64,000 nucleotides of DNA, taken from Candidatus Versatilivorator sp. Its GTDB lineage: Bacteria; Acidobacteriota; Terriglobia; Versatilivoradales; Versatilivoraceae. Position numbers and translations under genes: made by a program. The notes below the pieces were generated by a model. The model was not told the origin of the DNA, made no database searches, and worked only from the letters and a program-made list of their open reading frames with translations. Of the stretch, positions 2,292-57,378 are shown one piece after another (the first letter of the stretch is position 1; each line of letters begins with the position of its first letter). The stretch covers positions 2,528,001 through 2,592,000 of the forward strand of contig OZ242296.1 of NCBI GenBank assembly GCA_965207735.1, given 5' to 3'.

Positions 2292-3632
2292 ATGTTGACC
2301 ATATACGGGCAAGGTCATTCGATGTGCGACGGCATGTCGCGGCGAAATTTTATCCAGATCGGCGCGCTGGGAATGGGTGGACTGACCATGCCCCAGCTGC
2401 TCCAGGCGGAAAAGCAGTCCGGCCTGGGCCGGTCCGGCAAAGCCATCATCATGATTTACATGCCCGGCGGCCCCCCGCACCAGGACATGTACGAACTCAA
2501 GCCGGACGCCCCCTCGGAGATCCGCGGCGAATTTCAGGCCATCAAGACCAAAGTCCCGGGAATCCATGTCTGCCAGCACCTGCCTCGCCTGGCCAGGATC
2601 ATGGACAAGCTGGTGCTGGTTCGAACCGTGGTCGGAGCCGAAAATTCCCACTCCTCCTACCAGTGCATGACCGGGCGCATCAGCGGCCGCAGGGGCAATC
2701 CTCCTCCGGGAGGCTGGCCGGAACTGGGATCGGTTCTCTCCAAGCTGAAGGGTCCCACCGATCCGGCCATTCCGCCCTACGTCAACCTGTCCCACAAGTC
2801 CCGCCACGGCGAGTACAACTTCGGTCGACCCAGTTTCCTGGGTGTGGCCCACACTCCCTTCAAGCCGCAGGGGGACATCAGAAACGACATGACCCTGAAT
2901 GGGGTCAGCCTGGAACGGCTTTCGGACCGCAGGCAGTTGCTGCAGAGCTTCGACCGGTTCCGCCGCGACGTGGACCGGACCGGTTTGATGGAGGGTCTGG
3001 ACAGCTTCCAGGAGCAGGCATTCGATGTCTTGACCTCCAGCCGGCTGCTCAAGGCCCTGGATGTCGAGCAGGAAAGCTCCAAGCTCCGCGACCGCTACGG
3101 CAGAGGCTCCCCCAAGCTGGAACGAGACGCGGCTCCCATGCACATGGACCAGTTCGTGGTGGCTCGCCGGTTGGTGGAGGCGGGTGTCCGCTGCGTGACG
3201 GTGAGCTTCGGGTATTGGGACTGGCACAGCGACAATTTCAAGAATGGGCGCTACTACCTCCCGGCCTTCGACCAGGGAGTCAGCGCCCTGGTGGAAGACC
3301 TCCATCAGCGAGGACTCGACAAGGATGTTTCGGTCATTGCCTGGGGTGAGTTCGGCCGCACTCCCAAGGTCAACAAGGATGCCGGCCGCGACCACTGGCC
3401 GCGCAACTCCTGCGCCCTGATGGCCGGAGGCGGCATGAGAGCCGGCCAGGCCATCGGTTCCACCAACCGACTGGGCGAGGAACCCAAGGAAAGACCGGTC
3501 CACGTTCAGGAGATCTTCGCCACGCTCTACCACAATCTGGGCATCGACGCCAACAAGACTCACATTACCGATCTTGCCGACCGCCCCCATTACCTGGTCG
3601 ACGGCCACATGCCCATGCCGGAAGTGATCTGA
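2292..3632 (+). CDS. DUF1501 domain protein with Tat-like leader
   Basis: Start moved to ATG 2292 (MLTIYG..CDGMSRRNFI). Motifs GGPPHQDMYELKP and [16 protein letters not shown]. Confidence 0.9.
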   Translation: MLTIYGQGHSMCDGMSRRNFIQIGALGMGGLTMPQLLQAEKQSGLGRSGKAIIMIYMPGGPPHQDMYELKPDAPSEIRGEFQAIKTKVPGIHVCQHLPRLARIMDKLVLVRTVVGAENSHSSYQCMTGRISGRRGNPPPGGWPELGSVLSKLKGPTDPAIPPYVNLSHKSRHGEYNFGRPSFLGVAHTPFKPQGDIRNDMTLNGVSLERLSDRRQLLQSFDRFRRDVDRTGLMEGLDSFQEQAFDVLTSSRLLKALDVEQESSKLRDRYGRGSPKLERDAAPMHMDQFVVARRLVEAGVRCVTVSFGYWDWHSDNFKNGRYYLPAFDQGVSALVEDLHQRGLDKDVSVIAWGEFGRTPKVNKDAGRDHWPRNSCALMAGGGMRAGQAIGSTNRLGEEPKERPVHVQEIFATLYHNLGIDANKTHITDLADRPHYLVDGHMPMPEVI

Positions 3633-11777: not shown

Positions 11778-12554
11778 ATGAATGTTCGCGAGCTGTTCGA
11801 TCTTTCCGGTTGCACGGCCATCGTTACCGGGGGCACCGGACTCTATGGAACTCCCATGTCGGAAGCCCTGGCCGAAGCCGGGGCTCATGTGATCATCGCC
11901 TCCCGCAACAAGTCCCGCTGCCAGGAATGGGCGGCTCGACTGGTGGACCGGGGACTGAAGGCCAGCGGCGAAAGTTACGATCAAGGGAGCGAGGAATCGA
12001 TACTGGCATTTAGCGAGCGAGTGCTGGAGCAACAGGGCTCCGTCGATATTCTGGTCAACAACTCGGTGGGACGTTCCATGCGGAGCTATGCAGCCCCTCT
12101 GGATGACTGGAGGCAGTCCATGGAGGTCAATGGCACGGGACTCTTCGCCATCTCCCGAGCCTTTATGGATCCCATGATGAAGAGAAAAAAGGGGACCATC
12201 ATCAACATCGGCTCTGTTCAGGGTGTGGTTGCCCCGGACTTCAGCAACTATGCCGGCACCAATATGACCACGCCGCCCGACTATCAGTTTCACAAGCACG
12301 GCCTGGTGGGACTTACCAAGTATTTGGCGGCTTGGGCCGGGCCCCATGACGTTCGAGTGAACGCCATTTCACCGGGAGGATACAACCCGGAGGTGGCTAC
12401 CGAACCCTTCCTGTCGCAGTACAACCGTCGCGTCTTTCTGGGGAGAATGGCGGAATACGACGATATCAAAGGCGTGGTGCTCTTCCTGGCTTCCGAGGCT
12501 TCGCGTTACATCACCGGGCAGAACATCGTGCTGGACGGCGGCTATTGCACCTGA
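11778..12554 (+). CDS. Short-chain dehydrogenase/reductase (SDR)
   Basis: TGGTGLYG Rossmann motif, LVNNS, YQFHK (YxxxK), RVNAISPGG, YITGQNIVLDGG; AGGAG RBS. Confidence 0.93.
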   Translation: MNVRELFDLSGCTAIVTGGTGLYGTPMSEALAEAGAHVIIASRNKSRCQEWAARLVDRGLKASGESYDQGSEESILAFSERVLEQQGSVDILVNNSVGRSMRSYAAPLDDWRQSMEVNGTGLFAISRAFMDPMMKRKKGTIINIGSVQGVVAPDFSNYAGTNMTTPPDYQFHKHGLVGLTKYLAAWAGPHDVRVNAISPGGYNPEVATEPFLSQYNRRVFLGRMAEYDDIKGVVLFLASEASRYITGQNIVLDGGYCT

Positions 12555-12583: not shown

Positions 12584-13497
12584 GCTTGTCTGAAACAACC
12601 GACAAGAGACAAAAGAAAAAGACTTATCCACGAAGGGGCACGAAGAACGACGAAGGGGCACTAAGGCGTTGAGGTTGACCGCGACGGGGTACCAAGGTCG
12701 CGAAGGGATGATCGATTTCTGATTGTTTCACTCTCGAATGATCCGCACGGCAGGGCGGGGGCCCGGCTTGCCTGAAACAACCGAAAAAAGACAAAAGAAA
12801 AAAGACTTATCCACGAAGGGGCACGAAGAACGACGAAGGGGCACTAAGGCGTTGAGGTTGACCGCGACGGGGTACCAAGGTCGCGAAGGGATGATCGATT
12901 TCTGCTTGTTTCACTCTCGAATGATCCGCACACCAGGGCGGGGGCGGGACTTGCCTGAAACAACCCCCTGTGCCGGGTGGCTCGAGATTGGTTCAAAGTC
13001 AGGCACGGGTAGGTTTTTGATTCCCATGGATGCACAGGATTTTTTCCGGAGACGGCTGGCTTGTATTCCTGGACATCCGCAAATCCGCACGCGATCATCG
13101 CCGGAGTCAGCGTTTCGTGCGTAGCGTCCCGTCCTGGTTATCCTGTGCATCCTGTGCATCCATGTTCAATTTATAGTCCTTCTCGATTGATCTTCCCCGT
13201 GGCGGGCCTTGGCTGGGCCCAACGCCCCGATTCCCAGTCAGCCTCCCGTGCAGCGGCCTCTGGTCCCATGAATCCTCTCTCTTGGGTTGCCGCTCAGTTT
13301 CCCTGCGATGGCGCACCCGGGTGGGCATTCGCCCCTGACGCCGTGACACCAACGTCACAATATTGCAGAAGCACCCGGGCGCCGCTCGTCATTGAAGGAG
13401 CTCCATCCCTATTCGTGCCTATTCGTGTTCATTCGTGGTTCGTCTTTTTTAACGATTGGGTGTTTTTCCTGGAATGATCCGCCCGGCAGGGCGGGGC
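12584..13497 (+). repeat. Modular repeat array 1: two near-identical 182/183-bp units plus a third unit with the same ends and different interior
   Basis: TGAAACAACC at 12591, 12773 and 12956. The unit end GAATGATCCGC(A/C)..CAGGGCGGGG recurs at 13472-13497. Confidence 0.9.
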
Positions 13498-14637
13498 TCA
13501 GCCAACCAGGCCCCTGAGTACCTCCTTGCAACGGCGGGCGACCACTTTCTCCTCACCCGGCTCCAGCATCCATGAACTCAACTCCAAGCGATTCCCCACG
13601 GTGGGAACGGGGGAGAGCTCAATTCGCGGTTCACCCTGCCGGAGCGCTTCCAGGAATTGCTCCTTGCTGAACTTGAGAACCCGGTCGTCCCATTCAATGG
13701 CCAAATGGGGAACCTGGCTGGAGATGACCGGCACGAAGTGGCTGGTTGTGATTCCCGGAATGCCACCAAAGGCCTCGCCAATGACCTCGAGCTGCCGCTC
13801 CCAACGTCTCCAATCGGCCTGGTGATCTCTTTTCAAGTAGAGTTCCAGGGCCTTGCAAAGACCGGCGATCTCCTCCTTGCCAACCTTGGACACCCGGCCG
13901 ATGCGGTCGGGATTGGGGGATGCGTTCAGAAAGGCAGCCCGAATCAGATCCTTGCGCCCCAACAGCAGACCGGACGATTGCGGCCCCCGGATTCCCTTGC
14001 CACCGCTGAAAGCCGCCAAATCAAATCCTAACCCGATCAAGTCGGTGAGATTTTCCACCGGTGGAATATCGGCCGCGGCATCGACCAGGCAGGGCACCCT
14101 GGCATTCCTGGCGATTTCAACATACTCCTTTCGTTGGATCTGCCCTCGGTGCTGGGCCATATTCAAGAAAAAAAGCATGGCAGTCCTGGAGCCGATGGCG
14201 GCTTCCAGTTCCCGCCGGCTTTCGACCTCAATCAACCGGACTCCAACGTTGCGAATGGCGTGGTCGTATTCCACCCGATGGGATTTCTGAAGGACGACTT
14301 CGTTCTTCATTCCCCGAGTGTCCGGGAGACGGCTCATCTTATCTTCGTCACACCCGGTCACACTGGCCGCGGTCCCCAACGTCAGCGCAGCCGCGCAGCC
14401 GCAAGTCACCAAAGCCGCCTCGGCGCCCAGCCAGGCGGCGATCTCTTGTCCTGCAGCTTCTTGCAGTTCCTGGATGGAGACGTATTGTGCGGAGGCCTCC
14501 TCCATGGACCGGAGCACCCGCGGAGCCATGAGGGAACCGCCGTACCGGGTGTAGCTGCCTCCAGCGTTGATGAAGGGGCGGAGACCCAGTCTTGCGTATA
14601 TTCCGGCTTGCTTGGATGGTGGGTTGGATTGAGCCAC
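13498..14637 (-). CDS. SelA-like PLP-dependent enzyme (DgaE-like / selenocysteine synthase-related)
   Basis: IY..LG.RPFINA.G, VDAAAD, FSGGKGIRGPQSSG (PLP lysine), KVGKEEI. The start at GTG 14637 is inferred; the ORF track extends to 14865. Confidence 0.8.
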   Translation of the reverse strand: MAQSNPPSKQAGIYARLGLRPFINAGGSYTRYGGSLMAPRVLRSMEEASAQYVSIQELQEAAGQEIAAWLGAEAALVTCGCAAALTLGTAASVTGCDEDKMSRLPDTRGMKNEVVLQKSHRVEYDHAIRNVGVRLIEVESRRELEAAIGSRTAMLFFLNMAQHRGQIQRKEYVEIARNARVPCLVDAAADIPPVENLTDLIGLGFDLAAFSGGKGIRGPQSSGLLLGRKDLIRAAFLNASPNPDRIGRVSKVGKEEIAGLCKALELYLKRDHQADWRRWERQLEVIGEAFGGIPGITTSHFVPVISSQVPHLAIEWDDRVLKFSKEQFLEALRQGEPRIELSPVPTVGNRLELSSWMLEPGEEKVVARRCKEVLRGLVG

Positions 14638-14908
14638 GATGTTCCGAACCCTTTCGCCGAGAAACTCCTTGCTTCTGAAACCGACTTGAAAGTAGCACAG
14701 TTTCCGCCGGGCTACAAAGGCGCGGAACCGGGACTTGAAGCTATTGAGGATCGAGCGATGCCTGTTGAAGGAACTCAGGGACGAATTGGCATTTCCGGGG
14801 GACTGGTCGGGAAATGATGGGGCGGATTTGGTCTCTTGCCAATGGAAGAAATGAAGGCGGGACACCGAAAATCCGGAAGCCCCACCTTCAACTGGAACCG
14901 AGTGCTCC

Positions 14909-15600: not shown

Positions 15601-15665
15601 TATAGACGCAAGTTTGGCCGCAAGCGATGTAAAGAGTCGGTAAACCCCATGTAAAGTTTTGTGAT
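15601..15665 (-). promoter_or_regulatory. CpxR-like four-box operator/promoter, site 1 (BON gene)
   Basis: GTAAA-6-GTAAA-6-GTAAA-5-GTGAT at 15629-15665, preceded by CAAGCG and TATAGACG. Same layout as the sites at 18668 and 20208. Confidence 0.75.
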
Positions 15666-18639: not shown

Positions 18640-18704
18640 ATCAGATGCCGATCGAGGCACAAGCGAGGTAAAGAGTCGGTCAACGTTACGTAAAGATTCG
18701 TCAA
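18640..18704 (-). promoter_or_regulatory. CpxR-like four-box operator/promoter, site 2 (M48 gene)
   Basis: GTAAA-6-GTCAA-6-GTAAA-5-GTCAA at 18668-18704, preceded by CAAGCG. Confidence 0.75.
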
Positions 18705-20179: not shown

Positions 20180-20244
20180 TATATACGTCGCTCCCCGCCA
20201 AGCGGGTGTAAAGAGTGCGTCAGGGTTCTGTAGAGTTTTGTCAA
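20180..20244 (-). promoter_or_regulatory. CpxR-like four-box operator/promoter, site 3 (spy/cpxP - cpxR intergenic)
   Basis: GTAAA-6-GTCAG-6-GTAGA-5-GTCAA at 20208-20244, preceded by CAAGCG and TATATACG. Confidence 0.75.
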
Positions 20245-26559: not shown

Positions 26560-27342
26560 ATGTTTCAACTCTCCGTCTGCGAGGGCACTGTCTTCCCGAA
26601 TCTCCCCTTTCTGCAGCGGGTCCGTGAAGTCTCGGCTGCGGGCTTCTCGGTGGAACTCTGGGGCTGGGAAGATGAGGCGCTGGACGCCATCGCGGCCGAT
26701 CCGGAGATTCAAATCGCTTCCATGCCCGGATGGGGGCCGGGCAGCATGGTTCACCCCGACGGGGTGGAGACCTTCTTGGAAGGCGCCAGGAAAAACCTGT
26801 CGGTGGCCCGGAGAATCGGATGCAGGAACCTGGCCGTTGCTTCCGGCGAACTTGACCGAAAGGGCCGGGTGGTGCACCCCATTGCCGAGCATCCCGCCGA
26901 CCTTTGGATCACCGCCTACCGATGCCTCTGCGAGCTGGCGGAAATCGCCGAAAAGGAGAATGTGTCCTATAACTTCGAAGTGCTCAATACCAAGGTCGAC
27001 CACGCCGGCTACCCCTTCCCCCATTTGGAAGACGGGGCTCGACTGATCCGGCAGGTCAACAGCCCGCGGGTTCGGCTTCTCGTCGATGTTTACCATGCTC
27101 AAGTGGAGGAAGGCAACGTCACACAAGCGATTCGAGACCATCGGCAGATCATCGGACACGTGCATGTGGCGGATGTCCCCGGGCGCCACGAGCCGGGCAC
27201 GGGGGAAATTCATTACCCCCGGGTGGCTGCCGCCCTTCGGGAGATCGCCTATAGCGGCACGGTGGGACTGGAAGCCTTTCCGGAGGGCGACAGCCATCTG
27301 GCCTTGGAGCGATTTCGCCGAGTCTTTTCTCAACTTGCCTGA
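26560..27342 (+). CDS. Hydroxypyruvate isomerase-like TIM barrel protein
   Basis: GFSVELW, EVLNTKVDHAGY, DVYHAQVEEGN, HVHVADVPGRHEPGTGEI.Y, VGLE. Confidence 0.88.
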   Translation: MFQLSVCEGTVFPNLPFLQRVREVSAAGFSVELWGWEDEALDAIAADPEIQIASMPGWGPGSMVHPDGVETFLEGARKNLSVARRIGCRNLAVASGELDRKGRVVHPIAEHPADLWITAYRCLCELAEIAEKENVSYNFEVLNTKVDHAGYPFPHLEDGARLIRQVNSPRVRLLVDVYHAQVEEGNVTQAIRDHRQIIGHVHVADVPGRHEPGTGEIHYPRVAAALREIAYSGTVGLEAFPEGDSHLALERFRRVFSQLA

Positions 27343-27503
27343 AACAAACGACAAAAGACAAAGAAAAAGACTTATCCACGAAGGGGCACTAAGGCGCTGA
27401 GGTTGACCGCGACGGGGTGCCAAGGTCGCGAAGGGATGGTCGATTTCAGATTGTTTCACTCTCGTATGATCCGCCCGGCAGGGCGGGGGCAGGGCTTGCC
27501 TGA
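27334..27503 (+). repeat. Single 161-bp unit of the modular repeat, bounded by CTTGCCTGA direct repeats
   Basis: CTTGCCTGA at 27334-27342 and 27495-27503. The interior matches the 12591 unit minus one 20-bp internal repeat. Confidence 0.9.
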
Positions 27504-38657: not shown

Positions 38658-38923
38658 TCCCGATGAACGCCTCGCTCCCGCCCGGCCGTGTGGATCATAC
38701 GAGCGTGAAACAACGAATCTTCATGGCTTGTCGGGAACGAGTACCCTGTCGTGCCAAGCCGGTTTTCTACTCATTGAACATGGATGCACAGGATGGACAG
38801 GATTATTAAACCGAAGTTCCTCCCATTTTACACCCAAAAAATCGCCTTAAGCCATTTGTTTTCTTGGGGAAGAGGATTGAGGCGTGTGGAGTGTTGTTCC
38901 CATGTATATGATTAGCATTTATC

Positions 38924-38957
38924 TTGACATGATAGTTGTATGTGATATCGTAGTCCC
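38924..38957 (+). promoter_or_regulatory. Sigma70-type promoter of the transposase, probably leaderless
   Basis: TTGACA-16-TATCGT, then 6 nt to ATG 38958 with no SD; repeated in copy 2. Confidence 0.55.
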
Positions 38958-40679
38958 ATGTACGTCGAAACCGTCCCCAACCGCAACTCTCCCCCTGCCA
39001 TCCTCCTGCGCGAAGGCCGCCGTGAGGGTAAAAAGGTCCATAAACGCACCCTGGCCAATCTCTCCCATTGGCCCAAGGACAAGATCGAGCGCCTCCGGCG
39101 CGTGCTCAAGAACGAACCCCTGGTCCATCCCGACCAACTCTTCGCCATCGAACGCTCCCTGCCTCATGGCCACGTCGAGTTGCTGCTGGAAGTGGTGCGG
39201 CAGCTGAAGCTGCCGGCGCTGATCGATTCCCGACCCTCTCCCCAACGGGACCGGGTCTTGGCCATGATCCTGCAGCGTCTGCTCTATCCGGCCTCCAAGC
39301 TGGCCACCACCCGTCTTTGGCACACCACCACGTTGGGTGAGGAACTGTCCCTTGAGGACACCGACGAGGACGATCTCTATGAGGCCATGGACTGGTTGCT
39401 GGAGCGTCAGGACCGGATTGAGCGCAAGCTGGCCAAGCGGCACCTGGCGGAAGGGGATGCGGTGCTCTATGACGTCAGCAGCAGTTACTACGAAGGCCAG
39501 ACCTGCTCGCTGATGCAGTTCGGCCACAACCGGGACGGCAGGCGGGACCGGCCCATGGTGGTCTACGGGGTGCTGGCCGACCAGATGGGGCGGCCGCTGT
39601 CGGTGCAGGCCTATGCCGGCAACACGGGGGATCCGACCACGGTGGGGGATCAGGTGGAGAAGGTGCGGGGTCGGTTTGGTCTGGAGCGGGTGGTGCTGGT
39701 GGGGGACCGCGGGCTGCTGACCGAGACGCAGATCAGCCATCTGAAGCGTCATCCGGGAGTGGGGTGGGTCTCAGCCCTGCGCCACCACCAGATACGCCGT
39801 CTGGTGGAGAGCGAGGCGGTTCAGCTCTCCCTGTTCGACGAGCGTCATCTGGCCGAAGTCCGCAGCCCGGACTATCCGGGCGAGAGGCTCATCGTCTGCC
39901 ACAACCCGCTGCTGGCCGAGCATCGGCGGCGGAAGCGGGAGGCTTTGCTGACAGCCACCGAGGAGGCGCTGGCCGGAATCGCCCGCCAGGTGGCCAGACG
40001 GACCCGCACGCCCTTGTCGGCGACCGAGATCGCCGAGAAAGTCGGCCGGGTCAAGAACCGCTTCCAGGTGGCCAAACACTTCCGGACCCAGATCGCAGAC
40101 GGGTCCTTCCACTATGAACGGCGCACCGACGCCATCATCCGGGAGGCGCAACTGGACGGGTTCTACATGCTGAGGACCAGCGAGCCAGCCGATCGCCTGC
40201 CAACAGCCGCGGTGGTGCGCCGCTACAAGGACCTGACGCGGGTGGAGCGGGCCTTCCGCTCCCTCAAGACCGTCGACCTGCACATCCGCCCCATCCGTCA
40301 TCGGGTGGAGAGCCGGGTGCGGGCTCATCTGTTCCTGTGCCTGCTGGCCTATTACGTTCAGTGGCATCTGCGGCTGGCCCTGGCTCCGTTGCTGTTCGAT
40401 GACGAGGAGTTGGAAGCGGAACGGGCACGGCGAGACCCGGTGCTGGCGGCCCAGCCGTCGGACTCCGCCAAACGGAAGAAGAGCAAACGCCTCACCGAGG
40501 ACGGCTTGCCGCTGCAGAGCCTGGAGACGTTGATGGCGCAGATGGCGACGCGGGCCCGCCACCAGTGCCGATTGCCCTCCGAACCCGATGGTCCGCGAGT
40601 CCAGCGATTGACCGAGCCGACCCCGCTACAGCAAAGGGCCTTCGAGCTCATCAGGATGTTCCCAGGCAAGACAACCTGA
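38958..40679 (+). CDS. IS1634-family DDE transposase
   Basis: RTLANLS, LYDVSSSYYEG, FGHNRD.RRD, GNTGD, VGDRG, VERAFRSLK, RPIRH....RVRAH; 573 aa. Confidence 0.93.
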   Translation: MYVETVPNRNSPPAILLREGRREGKKVHKRTLANLSHWPKDKIERLRRVLKNEPLVHPDQLFAIERSLPHGHVELLLEVVRQLKLPALIDSRPSPQRDRVLAMILQRLLYPASKLATTRLWHTTTLGEELSLEDTDEDDLYEAMDWLLERQDRIERKLAKRHLAEGDAVLYDVSSSYYEGQTCSLMQFGHNRDGRRDRPMVVYGVLADQMGRPLSVQAYAGNTGDPTTVGDQVEKVRGRFGLERVVLVGDRGLLTETQISHLKRHPGVGWVSALRHHQIRRLVESEAVQLSLFDERHLAEVRSPDYPGERLIVCHNPLLAEHRRRKREALLTATEEALAGIARQVARRTRTPLSATEIAEKVGRVKNRFQVAKHFRTQIADGSFHYERRTDAIIREAQLDGFYMLRTSEPADRLPTAAVVRRYKDLTRVERAFRSLKTVDLHIRPIRHRVESRVRAHLFLCLLAYYVQWHLRLALAPLLFDDEELEAERARRDPVLAAQPSDSAKRKKSKRLTEDGLPLQSLETLMAQMATRARHQCRLPSEPDGPRVQRLTEPTPLQQRAFELIRMFPGKTT

Positions 40680-40726
40680 GATTCCTGATTGATGATTGAA
40701 GATAAAGGAGTTATCTTGTCGGTGGA

Positions 40727-42655
40727 CCGAAGTTCCTCCCATTTTACACCCAAAAAATCGCCTTAAGCCATTTGTTTTCTTGGGGAAGAGGATTGAGGCG
40801 TGTGGAGTGTTGTTCCCATGTATATGATTAGCATTTATCTTGACATGATAGTTGTATGTGATATCGTAGTCCCATGTACGTCGAAACCGTCCCCAACCGC
40901 AACTCTCCCCCTGCCATCCTCCTGCGCGAAGGCCGCCGTGAGGGTAAAAAGGTCCATAAACGCACCCTGGCCAATCTCTCCCATTGGCCCAAGGACAAGA
41001 TCGAGCGCCTCCGGCGCGTGCTCAAGAACGAACCCCTGGTCCATCCCGACCAACTCTTCGCCATCGAACGCTCCCTGCCTCATGGCCACGTCGAGTTGCT
41101 GCTGGAAGTGGTGCGGCAGCTGAAGCTGCCGGCGCTGATCGATTCCCGACCCTCTCCCCAACGGGACCGGGTCTTGGCCATGATCCTGCAGCGTCTGCTC
41201 TATCCGGCCTCCAAGCTGGCCACCACCCGTCTTTGGCACACCACCACGTTGGGTGAGGAACTGTCCCTTGAGGACACCGACGAGGACGATCTCTATGAGG
41301 CCATGGACTGGTTGCTGGAGCGTCAGGACCGGATTGAGCGCAAGCTGGCCAAGCGGCACCTGGCGGAAGGGGATGCGGTGCTCTATGACGTCAGCAGCAG
41401 TTACTACGAAGGCCAGACCTGCTCGCTGATGCAGTTCGGCCACAACCGGGACGGCAGGCGGGACCGGCCCATGGTGGTCTACGGGGTGCTGGCCGACCAG
41501 ATGGGGCGGCCGCTGTCGGTGCAGGCCTATGCCGGCAACACGGGGGATCCGACCACGGTGGGGGATCAGGTGGAGAAGGTGCGGGGTCGGTTTGGTCTGG
41601 AGCGGGTGGTGCTGGTGGGGGACCGCGGGCTGCTGACCGAGACGCAGATCAGCCATCTGAAGCGTCATCCGGGAGTGGGGTGGGTCTCAGCCCTGCGCCA
41701 CCACCAGATACGCCGTCTGGTGGAGAGCGAGGCGGTTCAGCTCTCCCTGTTCGACGAGCGTCATCTGGCCGAAGTCCGCAGCCCGGACTATCCGGGCGAG
41801 AGGCTCATCGTCTGCCACAACCCGCTGCTGGCCGAGCATCGGCGGCGGAAGCGGGAGGCTTTGCTGACAGCCACCGAGGAGGCGCTGGCCGGAATCGCCC
41901 GCCAGGTGGCCAGACGGACCCGCACGCCCTTGTCGGCGACCGAGATCGCCGAGAAAGTCGGCCGGGTCAAGAACCGCTTCCAGGTGGCCAAACACTTCCG
42001 GACCCAGATCGCAGACGGGTCCTTCCACTATGAACGGCGCACCGACGCCATCATCCGGGAGGCGCAACTGGACGGGTTCTACATGCTGAGGACCAGCGAG
42101 CCAGCCGATCGCCTGCCAACAGCCGCGGTGGTGCGCCGCTACAAGGACCTGACGCGGGTGGAGCGGGCCTTCCGCTCCCTCAAGACCGTCGACCTGCACA
42201 TCCGCCCCATCCGTCATCGGGTGGAGAGCCGGGTGCGGGCTCATCTGTTCCTGTGCCTGCTGGCCTATTACGTTCAGTGGCATCTGCGGCTGGCCCTGGC
42301 TCCGTTGCTGTTCGATGACGAGGAGTTGGAAGCGGAACGGGCACGGCGAGACCCGGTGCTGGCGGCCCAGCCGTCGGACTCCGCCAAACGGAAGAAGAGC
42401 AAACGCCTCACCGAGGACGGCTTGCCGCTGCAGAGCCTGGAGACGTTGATGGCGCAGATGGCGACGCGGGCCCGCCACCAGTGCCGATTGCCCTCCGAAC
42501 CCGATGGTCCGCGAGTCCAGCGATTGACCGAGCCGACCCCGCTACAGCAAAGGGCCTTCGAGCTCATCAGGATGTTCCCAGGCAAGACAACCTGAGATTC
42601 CTGATTGATGATTGAAGATAAAGGAGTTATCTTGTCGGTGGGTCAGGAACTTCGG
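40727..42655 (+). mobile_element. IS1634-family element, copy 2 (complete, 1929 bp)
   Basis: IRL CCGAAGTTCCT at 40727; IRR AGGAACTTCGG ending at 42655, followed by ATTAAA matching 38805-38810. Confidence 0.92.
40874..42595 (+). CDS. IS1634-family DDE transposase (same translation as copy 1)
   Basis: Same 573-aa protein, offset 1916 bp. Confidence 0.93.
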   Translation: MYVETVPNRNSPPAILLREGRREGKKVHKRTLANLSHWPKDKIERLRRVLKNEPLVHPDQLFAIERSLPHGHVELLLEVVRQLKLPALIDSRPSPQRDRVLAMILQRLLYPASKLATTRLWHTTTLGEELSLEDTDEDDLYEAMDWLLERQDRIERKLAKRHLAEGDAVLYDVSSSYYEGQTCSLMQFGHNRDGRRDRPMVVYGVLADQMGRPLSVQAYAGNTGDPTTVGDQVEKVRGRFGLERVVLVGDRGLLTETQISHLKRHPGVGWVSALRHHQIRRLVESEAVQLSLFDERHLAEVRSPDYPGERLIVCHNPLLAEHRRRKREALLTATEEALAGIARQVARRTRTPLSATEIAEKVGRVKNRFQVAKHFRTQIADGSFHYERRTDAIIREAQLDGFYMLRTSEPADRLPTAAVVRRYKDLTRVERAFRSLKTVDLHIRPIRHRVESRVRAHLFLCLLAYYVQWHLRLALAPLLFDDEELEAERARRDPVLAAQPSDSAKRKKSKRLTEDGLPLQSLETLMAQMATRARHQCRLPSEPDGPRVQRLTEPTPLQQRAFELIRMFPGKTT

Positions 42656-43126
42656 ATTAAATGAAGACGAACCACGAATGAACACGAATAGACACGAAGA
42701 CGGATAGACCTCCTTGGGTTCGACGATGTCTTTTTTCGGTTGTTTCAGGCCAGCCGGGCCTCCGCCCTGGTGTGCGGATCATGCATAGAGTGAAACAATC
42801 GGAAATCGATCAACCCTTCGCGAACTTGGTACCCCGTCGCGGCCAACCTCAGCGCCTTCGTGTCCCTTCGTGGTCCTTCGTGCCCCTTCGTGGATAAGTC
42901 TTTTGTCTTTTGTCTCTTGTCGGTTGTTTCAGGCCAGCCGGGCCTCCGCCCTGGTGTGCGGATCATGCATAGAGTGAAACAATCGGGAATCGATCAACCC
43001 TTCGCGAACTTGGTACCCCGTCGCGGCCAACCTCAGCGCCTTCGTGTCCCTTCGTCGTTCTTCGTGCCCCTTCGTGGATAAGTCTTTTGTCTTTTGTCTT
43101 TTTTCGGTTGTTTCAGACAAGCCGCT

Positions 43127-49914: not shown

Positions 49915-50093
49915 CTGCCGACCCTCCCTCTGATCTGCCCGCGAATGCTACCGCGGAACCCCTAACTCCATTATGATATAGACGTTAGATGGTAGCGGAT
50001 TCCGGAGATCGTGTCACGAAATCATTGATCATCGCAAATGCGCACCGGACCATCGCCCGAGCCTGATTCCTGTGCAGCGGCGTCACGGTCTGT

Positions 50094-50175
50094 TAATCCT
50101 GTCTATCCTGTCCATCCATGTTCTCTTGGTATTTTTTCGTGCCCCTTCGTCGTCCTTCCTGTCCCTTCGTGGATA
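50094..50175 (-). repeat. Dispersed short-period modules of the modular repeat family
   Basis: ATCCTGTCTATCCTGTCCATCCATGTTC matches 13140-13167 and 38777-38803. TTCGTGCCCCTTCGTCG...CCTTCGTGGATA matches the CCACGAAGGGGCACGAAG module. Confidence 0.7.
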
Positions 50176-50214
50176 TCTCTTGGTCCTTCGTGAGTCGAGA
50201 GCCGACGAGTCCTA

Positions 50215-50300: not shown

Positions 50301-52913
50301 ATGCGAGGCTGGCTTCCGGTGCGAACCGTTCAGTGTCTTGCAGTCCTGGCTATCCTGGGAATCCCCTCCCTGGCCTATGCCGCCGCCGATTCCACCGCTC
50401 AGGCGGCTCATGCCATCTTGCAGAAGCATTGCCTCTCCTGCCACGGAGCCGGCCAGATGTCGGGTCTGGACCTGAGGCAAAGAGAGACCCTGCTGAAAGG
50501 AGGCAGCCGCGGTCCGGCCGTCGTTGTCGGCGATGCCACCCAGAGCCTGCTCTTCCGTTCGGCCGCCCATCTCAGCGAACCCAAGATGCCGCCCGACAGC
50601 CGCCGGCCCTTGCCCCAGGGAGATCTGGCCATTCTGAAGGAATGGATTGAAGCGGGTGCCCCATTCCCCGAAGAGGGGGCTGCGACCGGGGAACCCTCCT
50701 GGTGGTCGTTGAAGAAGCCGCGGCGGCCCCCTCTCCCCGAACTGGCTGAGGCCCCGTCCAATCCCGTCGATGCCTTCATCCTGGCCAAGCTGCGGGAGAA
50801 GGGACTCGAACCGGCTCCGGCGGCCGACAAGGCCACCCTGCTTCGACGGGCCTACTTCGACCTGGTGGGTCTGCCGCCGACTCCGGCCCAGGCGGACCGA
50901 TTCCTGCGGAACACCTCCCCCGACGCGTTCGAAGAGTTGATCGACGAGCTGCTGGCTTCCTCCCACTATGGCGAACGCTGGGGGCGGCACTGGCTGGATG
51001 TGGTCCGCTACGCCGACAGCGCCGGGTTCGAAGGCGACGTCTTTTACCCGAACGCCTGGCGATACCGGGACTATGTGATCAAGTCCTTCAACGAGGACAA
51101 GCCCTACGACCGCTTCGTCCAGGAGCAGATCGCCGGGGACGAGCTTTTTCCGAACAACCTGGAGATGGAGGGTTTCTACGACATTTCCCCGGAAAAGCTG
51201 GAACACATGGAAGCCAGGATCGGAACCACGCTCTACACCTTCGGACCGGAAATCCAGGAATCTCACCTGGATGCCGAACGGCTGCGCTACGAACGGCTCA
51301 CCGACGCGGTCGACACCACCGCGGCGGCCTTCATGGGGCTGACCCTGGAGTGCTCGCGCTGCCACGACCACAAATTCGACCCCCTCACTCAGAAGGATTA
51401 CTTTCAGTTGCAGGCCGTCTTCGCCGCCAGTTCCCGCAAGACCATCCCCGTGGTCAGCAGCATGTCCACCGGTCATCGCCGCGACGACTACCACCGCATG
51501 ATTGCGCTGGCCGAAGCCAGAGCCTCCTACCAGAAGTTTGAAACGCAGGTCAAGGACCGGGTCATCGAAACCAAGAAGAAGGACTACCCGCCCGAGGTGG
51601 TGCGCGCCTACGAGGTGCCCATGGAGGAGCGTACCGCCCGGGAGCTGGAACTGGCCGCACCTCTGACCCAGTTCTACATGGAAATGAAGATCGAGGATCA
51701 TCTCGCCGATGAGGAGAAGAACCGCCACGGAAACTACATCCGGAAGCTGGCCAGGGCCGCGCTGGACGTCCCGCTTGCGGACGGTTCGCACCAGGTGAAA
51801 TATGACGGATTCTTCGACGTGCCCTCGGCCACGGTTCTGGGACACCTCAAGCCCGAGCTGGTTCCGGACACGTACCTGTTGAACCGCGGCGAGCTGTCGC
51901 TGAAGAGAGAGATCGTCCAGCCGGGGCTGCCGTCGGTTCTGCGCGGCGGCAGTGTTCCCGACAAGCTGTCCATGGGTCCTCACGGCCCGCGCTACCGCAA
52001 ACATTTCGCGCTCTGGCTGACCCGGCCCACCCATCCGCTCACGGCGCGAGTCATGGTCAACCGCATCTGGCAGGGCCATTTCGGACAAGGCCTCGTCCGC
52101 ACCTCGAACGACTTCGGACGCCAGGGCGACCGACCCTCCCACCCCGAATTGCTGGACTGGCTGGCCACGGAGTTCGTCGATCGGGGATGGAGCGTCAAGT
52201 CCATGCACCGGTTGATCATGCTCTCGGACGCCTACCGGCGGGACAGTCGTTACACCACCACGACCCACCGGCAGCAGGATCCCGAAAACCGTTTCCTGTG
52301 GCGCATGAACCGCCGCCGCCTGGAAGGGGAGGCGGTGTGGGATTCGCTGCATGCCGTCGCCGGCAATCTGAACCCGACCATGGGAGGACGGCCTGCCATT
52401 CCCCCGCTTTCCAAGGTCGAAATGAGTTCCCTGCGCATCAAGCCCTGGTGGGCCGTTTCGGAAGACCCTGCCGCCGGCAGGCGTCGCGGCGTCTACATCC
52501 TGGCCCGGCGCAACTTCACCTTCCCCATGTTCGACAAGTTCGACGTGCCCAACTCCTCGGTGAGTTGCGCCGGACGGGAAGTGACGACGGTCGCCCCCCA
52601 GGCGCTCTGGTCCCTGAACAACGACGCCTCCTTCAGGCAGGCCCAAGTGCTGGCTGACCGGCTGGTTGGCGAAGCCGGCGCCAGTCCCGCCGACCAGGTG
52701 GACCTGGCCTGGAGGCTGGTGCTGGCCCGGCCGCCGTCGGCTGAAGAAAGGCAGGAGGCGATCACGCTTTTGTCGCGACTGGCTTCAAGCAATGGAAGTC
52801 AGGCATCCCACCCCTCCGGCGAAGATACTGAAAAAACGACCGGGCACAGGGATGCCTTGACTCAGCTTTGCTTGACGATGTTCAACTTGAGCGAGTTCTT
52901 CTACATCGATTGA
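50301..52913 (+). CDS. PSD1-type protein: Planctomycete cytochrome c + DUF1549 + DUF1553
   Basis: Signal peptide; CLSCH, MPP..WIEAGA, YGERWGRHWLD, CSRCHDHKFDP, VNRIWQGHFG.GLV, RRLEGE, NLSEFFYID. Confidence 0.92.
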   Translation: MRGWLPVRTVQCLAVLAILGIPSLAYAAADSTAQAAHAILQKHCLSCHGAGQMSGLDLRQRETLLKGGSRGPAVVVGDATQSLLFRSAAHLSEPKMPPDSRRPLPQGDLAILKEWIEAGAPFPEEGAATGEPSWWSLKKPRRPPLPELAEAPSNPVDAFILAKLREKGLEPAPAADKATLLRRAYFDLVGLPPTPAQADRFLRNTSPDAFEELIDELLASSHYGERWGRHWLDVVRYADSAGFEGDVFYPNAWRYRDYVIKSFNEDKPYDRFVQEQIAGDELFPNNLEMEGFYDISPEKLEHMEARIGTTLYTFGPEIQESHLDAERLRYERLTDAVDTTAAAFMGLTLECSRCHDHKFDPLTQKDYFQLQAVFAASSRKTIPVVSSMSTGHRRDDYHRMIALAEARASYQKFETQVKDRVIETKKKDYPPEVVRAYEVPMEERTARELELAAPLTQFYMEMKIEDHLADEEKNRHGNYIRKLARAALDVPLADGSHQVKYDGFFDVPSATVLGHLKPELVPDTYLLNRGELSLKREIVQPGLPSVLRGGSVPDKLSMGPHGPRYRKHFALWLTRPTHPLTARVMVNRIWQGHFGQGLVRTSNDFGRQGDRPSHPELLDWLATEFVDRGWSVKSMHRLIMLSDAYRRDSRYTTTTHRQQDPENRFLWRMNRRRLEGEAVWDSLHAVAGNLNPTMGGRPAIPPLSKVEMSSLRIKPWWAVSEDPAAGRRRGVYILARRNFTFPMFDKFDVPNSSVSCAGREVTTVAPQALWSLNNDASFRQAQVLADRLVGEAGASPADQVDLAWRLVLARPPSAEERQEAITLLSRLASSNGSQASHPSGEDTEKTTGHRDALTQLCLTMFNLSEFFYID

Positions 52914-55029: not shown

Positions 55030-57378
55030 ATGCGGCACGGCACCTACCGGCAGGCAGTTGCGGCTGCAGTGACCATCACTCTTGCCGCCCTGCTTTCGCA
55101 AACCTGGGCGGAACCCTCCGCCCCCTCTGTCGCCGCCCGGTCTGACGACCGCAAGCCTGCTTGGTGGTCCTTCCAAAAGCTCCGGCGGCCCCAGATCCCC
55201 CGGCCGGGGAACGGCAGCCAGCCTTCCAATCCCATCGACGCGTTCGTGTTGGCCAAGCTCCGGGAGAAGCGTCTCGAGCCAGGCCCCGCCGCCGCCAGGT
55301 CGGTCCTGTTGCGCCGGGCCACCTTCGATCTGTGGGGTCTGCCACCGACTCCCGCCCAAGCCGAGCGCTTTCTGCGGGATGACTCGCCCGAGGCCTACGA
55401 AAGACTCATCGAGGAGCTGCTCGAGTCGCCCCGTTACGGGGAACGCTGGGGGCAGCACTGGCTGAATGTGGTCGGGTACGCCGACAGCAGATCCGACTCA
55501 GAGGACTACCATCCCAACGCCTGGCGCTATCGGGACTACGCGATCAAATCCTTCAACGACGACAAGCCCTACGACCGCTTCGTCCAAGAGCAGATCGCCG
55601 GAGACGAGCTTTTCCCGAACAACCTCGAACTGGAAGGCTTCTACGACCTCTCTCCCGAGAAGCTGGAGCACCTGGAAGCCTGGATAGGAACCACCATCTT
55701 CGCCGTTGGGCCGGGAGGCCGAGAGGGGCATCTGGATGCGGAAGTCTCGCGGTACCGCTGGCTGACCGAGGTGGTGAACAAGACGGCGTCCTCATTCCTC
55801 GGGTTGACCCTGGAATGCGCCCGTTGCCACAACCACCGATCCGACCCTTTCTCCCAGGAAGACTACTTCGGGCTGCAAGCGATTTTTGCCGCCAGCCGGC
55901 CCTCAACCATTCCGGTTGTGGCCTCGACCACCCTGGGCCACCGCGACGAAGCCTATCATATGGCGATTGCTCTGGTGGAAGCCAGAGACGCTTACCTGCG
56001 GTTTGCAAGGCAGGTCAGGGATCGAGTCGTCGAACCCAAGAAACGGGACTATCCCTCGGAAGTGGTTCATGCCTACGAGATTCCCCTGGAAGCGCGATCC
56101 GCCCGAGAGACGGAATTGGCGGCTCCGTTGGACCAATTGCACCGCGAGCTGAATATTGAAGAGCACCTTACTCCTGAAGAGACCGAACGCCACCGGGAGC
56201 TGACCCGAAAACTGGCCAAGGCGGCCGTGGCCATTCCTGCCAAGGGATTGGCGCACAAGGTTGACTATGATGGGTTTTACGATGTGCCGTCAGCCACGGT
56301 GCTGGGTGGAGTGAGGACGGAGTTGATTCCTGAAACTCACCTTTTGAACCGCGGGGAGCCGGCACGCAAGAAACACCTCGTCCACCCCGGTCTTCCCCGG
56401 ACCCTCAGGCATGACGCCGGCCCGGCCGAGTTGTTCCGGGAAGCCAATGGCCACCACTACCGCAAGCAACTGGCCCTCTGGCTGACGCGGCCGACCCATC
56501 CTCTGACCGTCCGGGTCATGGTCAACCGCATCTGGCAGGGTCACTTCGGACAAGGCCTGGTGCGCACTGACGACGACTTCGGTCCCCAGGGCGACTCTCC
56601 CGTCCATCGGGAACTGCTGGATTGGCTCGCCTGCCGATTCGTGGATCAGGGTTGGAGCGCGAAGTCCATGCACAGGCTGATCATGCTGTCAAACACCTAT
56701 CGAAGGGACAGTCGCTTTTCCACGGCCGGCCATCGGCGGCAAGATCCCTCCAATCGCTACTGGTGGCGCATGAACCCACGGCGGCTGGAAGGCACAGCCG
56801 TTTGGGATGCCATCCACCAGGTGTCAGGCGCCCTGAATCTGAAGATGGCAGGTCGGCCGGCAATCCCGCCCCTGGCGGAAGTCGAAGGGACTACCCCTCG
56901 AATGACGTCCCGGTGGCCCGCCTCGGACGATCCGACGGCGGGCCGTCGGCGCGGGGTCTACCTTCTGACTCGACGAGCGCCTCCACGGTTCCACCATACG
57001 ACTGCCGCCCCGGCTTCCAACGGCTGCCCTGCCAAGGATGCCGGCAACGAAAGTCCTCTGACTGTCTGGAAACTGAACCGCAAGGGCCTTTACCAGCAGG
57101 CCCGCAATTTGGCTTCCCGTCTGGTGCGAGATGCGGGTAAGGACCCCTCCCGCCAGATCGACCTGGCCTGGCAACTGACCCTGGCGCGGGCCCCCAAGGA
57201 TGAAGAGAAACAGGAAGCGCTGAACCGGTTGAATCGACCGGCCTCGAACAATCAATCTCTGCCGGAAAACGGATCCCTCCCGGAGGGTCCGGGTTCGCTC
57301 GATCCGCCGCAAGCCGCGGCACTCACCCGCCTCTGTCTGAGTCTGTTCAATCTCGAAGAGTTTGTCCGTATCGACTAG
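55030..57378 (+). CDS. DUF1549/DUF1553 protein lacking the N-terminal cytochrome c; paralog of 50301..52913
   Basis: Long near-identical blocks (KPYDRFVQEQIAGDELFPNNLE.EGFYD.SPEKLEH, ALWLTRPTHPLT.RVMVNRIWQGHFGQGLVRT); CARCH. Confidence 0.9.
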   Translation: MRHGTYRQAVAAAVTITLAALLSQTWAEPSAPSVAARSDDRKPAWWSFQKLRRPQIPRPGNGSQPSNPIDAFVLAKLREKRLEPGPAAARSVLLRRATFDLWGLPPTPAQAERFLRDDSPEAYERLIEELLESPRYGERWGQHWLNVVGYADSRSDSEDYHPNAWRYRDYAIKSFNDDKPYDRFVQEQIAGDELFPNNLELEGFYDLSPEKLEHLEAWIGTTIFAVGPGGREGHLDAEVSRYRWLTEVVNKTASSFLGLTLECARCHNHRSDPFSQEDYFGLQAIFAASRPSTIPVVASTTLGHRDEAYHMAIALVEARDAYLRFARQVRDRVVEPKKRDYPSEVVHAYEIPLEARSARETELAAPLDQLHRELNIEEHLTPEETERHRELTRKLAKAAVAIPAKGLAHKVDYDGFYDVPSATVLGGVRTELIPETHLLNRGEPARKKHLVHPGLPRTLRHDAGPAELFREANGHHYRKQLALWLTRPTHPLTVRVMVNRIWQGHFGQGLVRTDDDFGPQGDSPVHRELLDWLACRFVDQGWSAKSMHRLIMLSNTYRRDSRFSTAGHRRQDPSNRYWWRMNPRRLEGTAVWDAIHQVSGALNLKMAGRPAIPPLAEVEGTTPRMTSRWPASDDPTAGRRRGVYLLTRRAPPRFHHTTAAPASNGCPAKDAGNESPLTVWKLNRKGLYQQARNLASRLVRDAGKDPSRQIDLAWQLTLARAPKDEEKQEALNRLNRPASNNQSLPENGSLPEGPGSLDPPQAAALTRLCLSLFNLEEFVRID

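Follow-up and report, generated by a model that had tools for sequence, protein, structure and literature searches.

Gene-less intergenic repeat units of Candidatus Versatilivorator share both ends with a resident IS110 element and are probably moved by its RNA-guided recombinase

Repeat units at three loci of the window

The window, i.e., the whole stretch of 64,000 nucleotides that was analyzed, belongs to a complete genome of 5.26 Mb and 61.9% GC (G000), and it carries arrays or single copies of an intergenic repeat at three loci, each lying between convergent genes. The features concerned are listed below; for repeat units, the strand given is the orientation of the insertion sequence (IS) whose ends they share.

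11778..12554, plus strand: short-chain dehydrogenase, flanking host gene (PF13561, PF00106)
12585..12766, minus strand: class A non-autonomous unit 1, 182 bp; its ends match the autonomous IS110 element
12585..12600, minus strand: right end (RE) of unit 1, with subterminal GTTTCA, left-donor AGACAAG, and AG core (CT at 12585-12586 on the plus strand)
12723..12766, minus strand: left end (LE) of unit 1, with an 8-nt stub, a GC hairpin, ATCATTC (12736-12742), and subterminal TGAAACAA (12723-12730)
12767..12949, minus strand: class A unit 2, 183 bp
12950..∼13497, minus strand: older composite unit; RE intact, LE degenerate, interior a mosaic of other dispersed repeats
13498..14865, minus strand: SelA-like flanking host gene (PF03841), its stop codon lying directly next to the composite unit's LE
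27334..27494, minus strand: single class A unit, 161 bp; precisely absent in the relative G002
43121-42938 and 42937-42754, plus strand: two class A units of the reverse locus, 184 bp each, 97% identical
38670..42753, plus strand: third unit of the reverse locus, a 4084-bp composite with IS1634 inserted
38958..40679, plus strand: IS1634-family transposase, copy 1 (unrelated passenger), 573 aa (NF033559, E 1.8e-94)
40874..42595, plus strand: IS1634-family transposase, copy 2, 573 aa, in a tandem 1916-bp repeat

This layout bears out a preliminary description of the DNA, which had placed two units of ∼182/183 bp before a longer one, the same architecture in reverse elsewhere, and a single unit at 27334. 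The first array runs from 12585 (12584 being flank) to ∼13497, and the reverse array from 43121 to ∼38670. That description was made on the strand opposite to the IS strand; because the IS recombinase gene runs on the other strand, the "start" of a unit in its terms is the IS right end, and the "end" is the IS left end. The inverted pair that it reported, TGAAACAA/TTGTTTCA, was found in all five short units of the window. The RE of unit 1 is identical to that of the IS110 element at 15 of 16 positions and equals the predicted donor and target guides, while its LE agrees with the IS110 LE at 36 of 44 columns (82%; E 3.9e-08; LE profile match, E 8.6e-19), and the class A unit matches the element at these ends only. 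The boundary between units 1 and 2, at 12766/12767, is an RE-LE (donor-type) junction. For the long unit at 12950, the claim of a common start holds, in that the RE is intact, but the claim of a common end does not, since TTGTTTCA is replaced by GGGTGTTTTTC at 13458-13468 and the degenerate LE gives a weaker end match (E 3.5e-07). Among matches to the first half of this unit, 22 of 102 cover at least 70%, and for its second half, 1 of 79 does so (the unit itself); trimer repeats lie at 13140-13161 and 13412-13427.

Two other statements needed correction. The units had been said to carry no open reading frame, whereas two IS1634 transposase genes of 573 aa each lie in tandem within the third unit of the reverse locus. 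This IS1634 pair (38810-42641; the 1916-bp repeats are 100% identical) has ATTAAA on either side, which is probably a 6-bp target duplication, and 16 full-length IS1634 matches were counted genome-wide. Further, the convergent setting holds for all three window loci but not as a genome-wide rule: by crude gene calls, the 122 gaps holding both ends comprise 25 convergent, 66 co-directional, and 31 divergent ones, as compared with a background of 300 convergent gaps in 2404 by the same crude calls (odds 1.8, p = 0.017), and specificity for convergent genes was rejected as a rule. At 8 loci, a host stop codon and the start motif overlap, with the same offset each time; at 27334-27494, the insertion shifts the stop of a minus-strand gene with a metallo-beta-lactamase fold, adding 15 residues relative to G002.

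The repeat population in the genome and the genus

Across G000, an LE profile gave 323 matches at E<0.01 (the best E in a locally shuffled genome was 0.085), a matrix scan gave 255 matches above 18 bits (none above 14 bits in a shuffled genome), and the start motif gave 295 matches. A preceding junction lies within 6 kb for 261 of the 323 left ends, which yields 261 modules. Of these, 148 are class A units (149-197 bp) and 10 are elements with a length of 1673-1685 bp, with many composites besides; 19 units of 60-68 bp (the ≤70-bp class) consist of the two ends only, with no interior. Three modules, at 4726719, 4671493, and 2013048, are probably host genes caught between unrelated ends and not true modules. 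Altogether, the modules form 133 chains, 65 of which hold at least two units. Of 14 genus genomes, 13 have the repeat, G000 among them; a search of 17 other relatives found it in none. An extra CTTGY precedes 17 of 150 starts, as compared with 5 of 1199 in controls.

Unit boundaries are conserved genome-wide, and the units are not fragments of one known IS, in that only their ends match it. Nor are they CRISPR arrays, as had been noted earlier, for the interiors are themselves repeated (148 class A copies) and there are no unique spacers. The 8-bp inverted pair is subterminal, its two halves lying at unequal distances of 6 and ∼36 bp from the ends; this placement, together with empty sites that lack a target-site duplication, led us to reject a classical MITE with terminal inverted repeats. 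The term "cassette system" is better read as MITE-like passengers of one IS than as integron-like gene capture; the arrays are dispersed over the genome as 133 chains.

An IS110 element carries the same ends

All 10 matches to Transposase_20 (PF02371) in G000 lie inside the 1673-1685-bp elements that have the repeat's ends. These IS110 copies are 97.4-100% identical, intact, and with open frames, and in 10 of 10, the right end of another unit stands directly before the left end. The recombinase, taken from the copy in L017, has 468 aa, combines PF01548 (DEDD) with PF02371, and scores 222 bits with NF033542 (cut-off, 140). Among 11 homologs, D36, E84, D121, and S356 are invariant and D124 is nearly invariant; we take these to be the catalytic residues. 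The nearest transposase homologs are from a Terriglobia bacterium and Ca. Versatilivorator sp. (Acidobacteriota). Where passengers have an interior, the autonomous copy has a non-coding leader of ∼250 nt and the DEDD recombinase gene, and the ends that the units share with it are a 16-bp right end and a left end of ∼45 bp. With ∼255 bp upstream of the ATG and ∼25 bp downstream of the stop codon, i.e., a long LE and a short RE, the element is, as judged by its end lengths, of the IS110 rather than the IS1111 group. No sigma-70 consensus that could serve as a junction promoter was found in L017:1900-2800.

The units share both ends with a co-resident autonomous element and lack a transposase, and in the features tested they agree with an IS110-dependent MITE. 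Judging from the sequence, we regard them as gene-less passengers of the resident IS110 element that are likely moved in trans by its RNA-guided recombinase, a reading to which we give a probability of roughly 0.88. On the IS strand, their anatomy is target-AG / LE (hairpin, ATCATTC, TGAAAC), interior, and RE (GTTTCA-AGRCAAG) / flank. The earlier proposal, in which an enzyme encoded elsewhere adds non-autonomous units head to tail at a conserved core, is thereby supported, and of the partners it suggested (RAYT/IS200, IS110, tyrosine recombinase, and GxxExxY), IS110 is the one. Six of the 14 genus genomes contain the cognate transposase; the complete genomes G009 and G011 have the repeat but gave no cognate transposase at E<1e-30, which suggests that the partner may be lost after a burst.

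We consider it highly improbable that the units are moved by another enzyme, whether of RAYT/Y1, IS91-type Y2, integron-type tyrosine recombinase, or GxxExxY nuclease cassette type. G000 does contain one Y1 match, 39 tyrosine-recombinase matches, and 5 GxxExxY fragments, and the interior trimer repeats also occur upstream of a GxxExxY gene fragment; however, only IS110 genes are bounded by the repeat ends, the other ORFs of long modules being IS or intron insertions inside units. A RAYT/Y1 partner seems improbable since the repeat blocks around the one Y1 gene have no end motif, and a GxxExxY partner was rejected since only the 5 fragments exist, although the trimer repeats nearby do supply interior DNA. 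A Y2 search of G000 gave no match, as did its search control. Some 30 tyrosine-recombinase matches of similar length (400-450-aa frames) are scattered over G000.

Guides of the predicted bridge RNA

The guide covariation test followed the logic used for IS621, as laid out in the accessible text of PMC11208160. Homologs were drawn from genome and metagenome contigs, which gave 97 loci with upstream DNA; 43 distinct elements above ∼50% identity were taken, homologs below ∼47% identity being left unscored, and the exclusion of four without the anchor motif, as well as of L031, a close relative of the query, left the covariation set of 38 (alignment A2). Two of the homologous elements, L120 and L114, have the left flank GGTTCGATCCCGGTTAGCTCCAC, which resembles the 3' end of a tRNA or tmRNA.

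In loop 1 of the leader, the seven letters that end in AG matched the DNA before the LE at 4.58 of 5 variable positions, as compared with 2.16 in permutations, 0 of 2000 of which reached the observed value, and those of loop 2 matched the right end at 4.95 of 5 positions (permuted, 2.43), exactly so in 36 of 37 cases. Within-clade permutations agreed with both results. Crossed comparisons did no better than chance, with 1019 of 10000 and 269 of 2000 permutations reaching the observed value. Where both partners had changed between the members of an independent tree pair (19 pairs), the match persisted at 33 of 41 positions for loop 1 and at 18 of 18 for loop 2. Moreover, the loop 1 base after the core equals the first LE base in 34 of 38 homologs. 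The segment at the right-target position showed no covariation with the right flank (1.19 vs 1.21). While a single-sequence fold of the leader was no more stable than shuffles, 17 of 31 pairs in its consensus fold have double changes. From the covariation, we infer that the leader is a predicted bridge RNA, with loop 1 reading the left target and loop 2 the right end, both loops ending at the AG core. Its profile matched G000 only at the 10 autonomous copies, and by this profile, the passengers have no guide RNA of their own. In G000, the target guide and the donor guide are the same, AGRCAAG.

Mobility, targeting, and stacking

Mobility was assessed against 1.6 Mb of G002, where 39 of 124 G000 chains had a unique upstream flank and could be compared. 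The 27334 unit is absent to the base in G002, leaving CAA joined to CTTGCCTGATA, and the crossover falls within the shared CTTGCCTGA. Among the 39 loci, 3 are exactly empty in G002, 1 is off by one base, 1 is imprecise, and 1 lacks exactly the front unit, i.e., differs by a one-unit addition on the right-end side; 17 carry equal or different content, and 16 were left unclosed. The empty sites show precise insertion at the core without target duplication. In the reciprocal test of 39 loci, 1 is empty in G000 under a 2235-bp G002 array of 11 end-bounded segments. In G002, an array at L272:15190-17425 is led by seven 141-bp units, the first ∼80 bases of which are 70-74% identical to the IS right end plus the 3' end of the transposase gene, so that they appear to form a second passenger class derived from the IS itself.

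Unique left flanks in G000 match the target guide at 3.12 of 5 positions, as compared with 1.56 at random CT sites (74 sites), and the AG core precedes the LE at 74 of 99 unique-flank sites. Right flanks have a weak CC bias only. We rejected a structured right target half of the kind found in ISPpu9 and ISPpu10, as the right flanks showed neither hairpin enrichment (26/150 vs 57/400 and 25/150 in controls) nor motif enrichment.

A relative, G008, offers a natural guide swap: its element has the target guide AGGTCAG and the donor guide AGACAAG, and it sits in an AGTGGTC heptamer repeat (L282:300-2070). Left ends follow TGGTYAG in 38 of 86 cases in G008, as compared with 2 of 169 in G000. Short passengers with the relative's left end are numerous in G008 at AGTGGTC heptamer tandem repeats. 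Across the five related genomes, which are non-independent samples, left ends stand directly after a right end in 77/169 cases in G000 (46%), 62/204 in G005 (30%), 36/166 in G002 (22%), 17/93 in G004 (18%), and 9/86 in G008 (10%), where the guides differ. Since both guides read AGRCAAG in G000, the end of every copy would likely be a new target.

The same comparison bears on the possibility that arrays arise with the same IS110 partner through donor-loop/donor-loop or half-match recombination, guide identity being incidental or a consequence. Such routes are described, in the accessible parts of the reports, for IS621 and CazIS110 (10.64898/2026.08.31.748434, 10.1101/2025.10.25.684509), with donor-only and half-match reactions of IS621 in the first of these, and tandem non-coding units with left-donor-only matches have been reported as well (10.64898/2026.08.14.744561). 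Our own data include RE-LE junctions in L051 (guides 0/5 alike) and in L089 despite differing guides, which suggests that donor-donor or half-match recombination may build arrays too. As the general explanation, we nevertheless find it unlikely, because the RE-LE share falls to 10% in G008 from 18-46% in the other four genomes, and the G008 ends follow the other guide (TGGTYAG).

Arrays are polar. Autonomous copies lead 6 arrays, occupy the middle of 2, and close none; composites close 37 and lead 7, and younger units show a weak trend toward the array front (p = 0.07). The 2+1 pattern of the window reflects this polarity, in which intact IS copies take front or middle positions and composites mostly come last. 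In only 6 of 39 adjacent pairs is each unit the first or second nearest relative of the other; from the remaining 33 pairs, it follows that arrays are built mostly from a genome-wide pool; a minority look like local duplications.

Local tandem duplication or gene conversion of a dispersed repeat, through host recombination or slippage, with IS110 merely targeting that repeat, could account for these 6 pairs, for the 95-97% identity of the adjacent pairs in the window, and for adjacent units being slightly more alike than average (0.885 vs 0.869, p = 0.009), and IS621 and ISPpu9 are reported to target REPs. As an account of the system as a whole, however, it is improbable: beyond the 33 pairs of other origin, whole units are precisely absent in G002, the units are bounded by both IS ends, with the donor sequence whose changes track those of loop 2, and unit flanks switch with the resident guide.

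Transposition in trans by the resident IS110 element, the reading that we favor, has indirect support in that unit flanks follow the resident guide. For its course, related systems suggest that any DNA bounded by LE and RE could be excised or copied out as a circle, which would then insert at an AG core after a match of the target guide, the right target half seeming nearly unconstrained. As a consequence, every insertion would create another AGRCAAG target, located at the right end of the copy itself, and units drawn from the genome-wide pool would be added mostly on the right-end side. Chromosomal RE-LE junctions would mimic circle junctions.

A third co-varying segment of loop 1

A third segment of loop 1, made up of the 5-6 letters preceding the conserved CAYT, at a position that could have held a right-target guide, is same-sense with an LE motif just past the hairpin, ∼30 bp from the core. 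With the test anchored on the invariant C, and with the sliding offset applied alike to permutations, this segment matched the LE motif at 4.79 of 5 positions (permuted, 2.60; permuted within clades, 3.48; 0 of 10000 reached the observed value), the motif occurring in 17 different six-letter versions among the 38 homologs. In independent tree pairs, the match survives at 15 of the 16 positions at which RNA and DNA both changed, with one-sided changes at 4 positions in the RNA and at 2 in the DNA; a crossed control gave 1 of 6, with 14 and 14 one-sided changes. Of the eight mismatches at the five variable positions, three would wobble-pair on the bottom strand. In 35 of 38 elements, 33-41 bp separate the core from GAAAC. 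When RNA columns were scanned for complementarity to the third segment, only single columns that follow the two clades came up, and no helix.

We prefer the interpretation that loop 1 would pair collinearly with the bottom strand on both sides of the LE hairpin; alternatively, the third segment may pair with an antisense RNA or share a protein-binding motif with the LE. In the 261 modules of G000, the LE motif reads GTATGAT in 113, GAATGAT in 72, GGATGAT in 34, and GCATGAT in 14, with another or no motif in 28. It is identical to the resident RNA segment in only 72 of 261, most passengers differing at one position, and given the 113 that read GTATGAT, some of the spread may date from an earlier partner. 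We tentatively suggest, at slightly less than even odds, that an AG-core IS110 clade uses a third programmable DNA-reading RNA segment to mark its LE, and that, with targeting dependent on a half site of 7 letters, a guide that drifted onto the right end of its own element could have made one member a polar, self-stacking builder of hundreds of passengers of at least 60 bp.

The co-variation of a third segment with an LE motif beyond the hairpin is the new part. A search covering mostly open-access papers and the main texts of preprints found no published description of a distal LE match or of a guide equal to the element's own end. A large survey (10.64898/2026.10.21.760802) rebuilt donor sites from 25-nt windows, and these might not extend as far as the distal LE motif.

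Interiors and later insertions

The class A interior opens with a trimer repeat that has 101 further occurrences away from any junction, and in the window, interior-type trimer repeats without IS110 ends lie at 50086-50191. L150 has no Rfam match, and the class A unit fold (z=1.62) is no more stable than shuffles; by these two approaches, we found no sign of function in the interiors. RAYT-type REPs are mostly free of modules (71 free, 27 near, and 8 inside).

The length of long modules comes mostly from inserted IS genes or a group II intron. A 391-aa ORF, probably an IS, is inserted in either orientation inside modules at G000 105887-107062 and nine more places, and a 455-aa ORF is likewise inserted inside three modules. 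At L017:2829-4843 (G000 ∼409.3-411.3 kb), a group II intron with a 452-aa RT/maturase lies in the class A trimer repeat, and the motif of its 5' end occurs 16 times, 11 of these after a CCACGAAG-type sequence. We rejected an origin of the repeat ends from group II introns, because the end motif comes without a domain V-like Rfam match, the only intron hits being the true intron inserted in a unit. Interiors may be seen as passive filler, largely other intergenic repeats moved between an LE and a more distant RE, which later insertions of IS elements and the group II intron would have enlarged.

Relation to known systems

The closest precedent is ISPpu9 of Pseudomonas putida KT2440, which the accessible text of its report (PMC12288879) describes as an element of the IS110 group with an AG core and no junction promoter, having a 43-bp left "A box" whose hairpin ends in CAAACA and a 16-bp right "B box" with TGTTTG. 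Its transposase-less relative, MITEPpu9 (the ssr9 module), has the same boxes, forms circles, and is sometimes found in tandem (PMC12288879). The ends described here follow the same plan and lengths (AG core, hairpin LE, short RE, subterminal inverted pair) and likewise have no sigma-70 site at the junction. In contrast, MITEPpu9 is reported with 8 copies, while the ends here number in the hundreds and enclose many different interiors or none at all, and the reported target of ISPpu9 is a REP with a palindrome in its right half, whereas right flanks here lack hairpin or motif enrichment. ISPpu10, too, is reported to target a stem-loop (10.64898/2026.03.19.712850).

IS621, as far as the accessible texts go (PMC11208160, PMC13626964), resembles the present element in its DEDD and Transposase_20 domains, in a long-LE RNA with the target loop first and the donor loop second, in left guides that are same-sense with the top strand, in a dinucleotide core, and in scarless insertion. 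The core of IS621 is CT, whereas the one here is AG on the RNA strand. Unlike in IS621 as described there, the one segment tested here shows no right-target covariation and matches the distal LE motif, the consensus fold has another topology, and the target and donor guides coincide in G000.

Expanded IS110 loci, in the accessible text of 10.64898/2026.08.14.744561, share with our arrays the tandem non-coding units beside IS110, left-donor boundary matches, and repeated local insertion; here, in contrast, most arrays have no transposase, units are two-ended, and the right junction regenerates a guide-matched target half. MITEPpu9/ISPpu9 and tandem IS110 expansion are published precedents. By analogy, the system would work like MITEPpu9/ISPpu9, with scale, minimal size, guide-equals-end stacking, and the third segment setting it apart.

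REP, BIME, and REPIN sequences with RAYT are abundant, lineage-restricted intergenic hairpin repeats in mosaic clusters. The present units differ from them in being bounded by IS110 ends, and the RAYT-type REPs of G000, mostly outside modules, are filler or neighbors.

If our reading is correct, a major intergenic repeat of an uncultured Acidobacteriota lineage is explained as the footprint of one RNA-guided recombinase. The units of 60-68 bp would serve as natural minimal substrates, and the relatives provide a guide swap made by nature. For the biology and engineering of bridge recombinases, the covariation suggests a recognition unlike that of IS621, with left-half targeting and a distant LE match; this scheme bears on how excision substrates are recognized and on why half-matches recombine. 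For the host, the insertions alter gene ends, as in the gene extended by 15 residues, and they provide sites at which IS elements and a group II intron have inserted.

Other repeats in the window

Two paralogous gene pairs, 2-931 / 2703-3632 and 50754-52256 / 55222-56721, have 71-78% DNA identity; the 50301 ORF is of the DUF1549/DUF1553 planctomycete-cytochrome type. Finally, a 42-nt intergenic motif with GTAAA repeats is present in three copies (15621-15662, 18660-18701, and 20200-20241) and is possibly a regulator-binding site.
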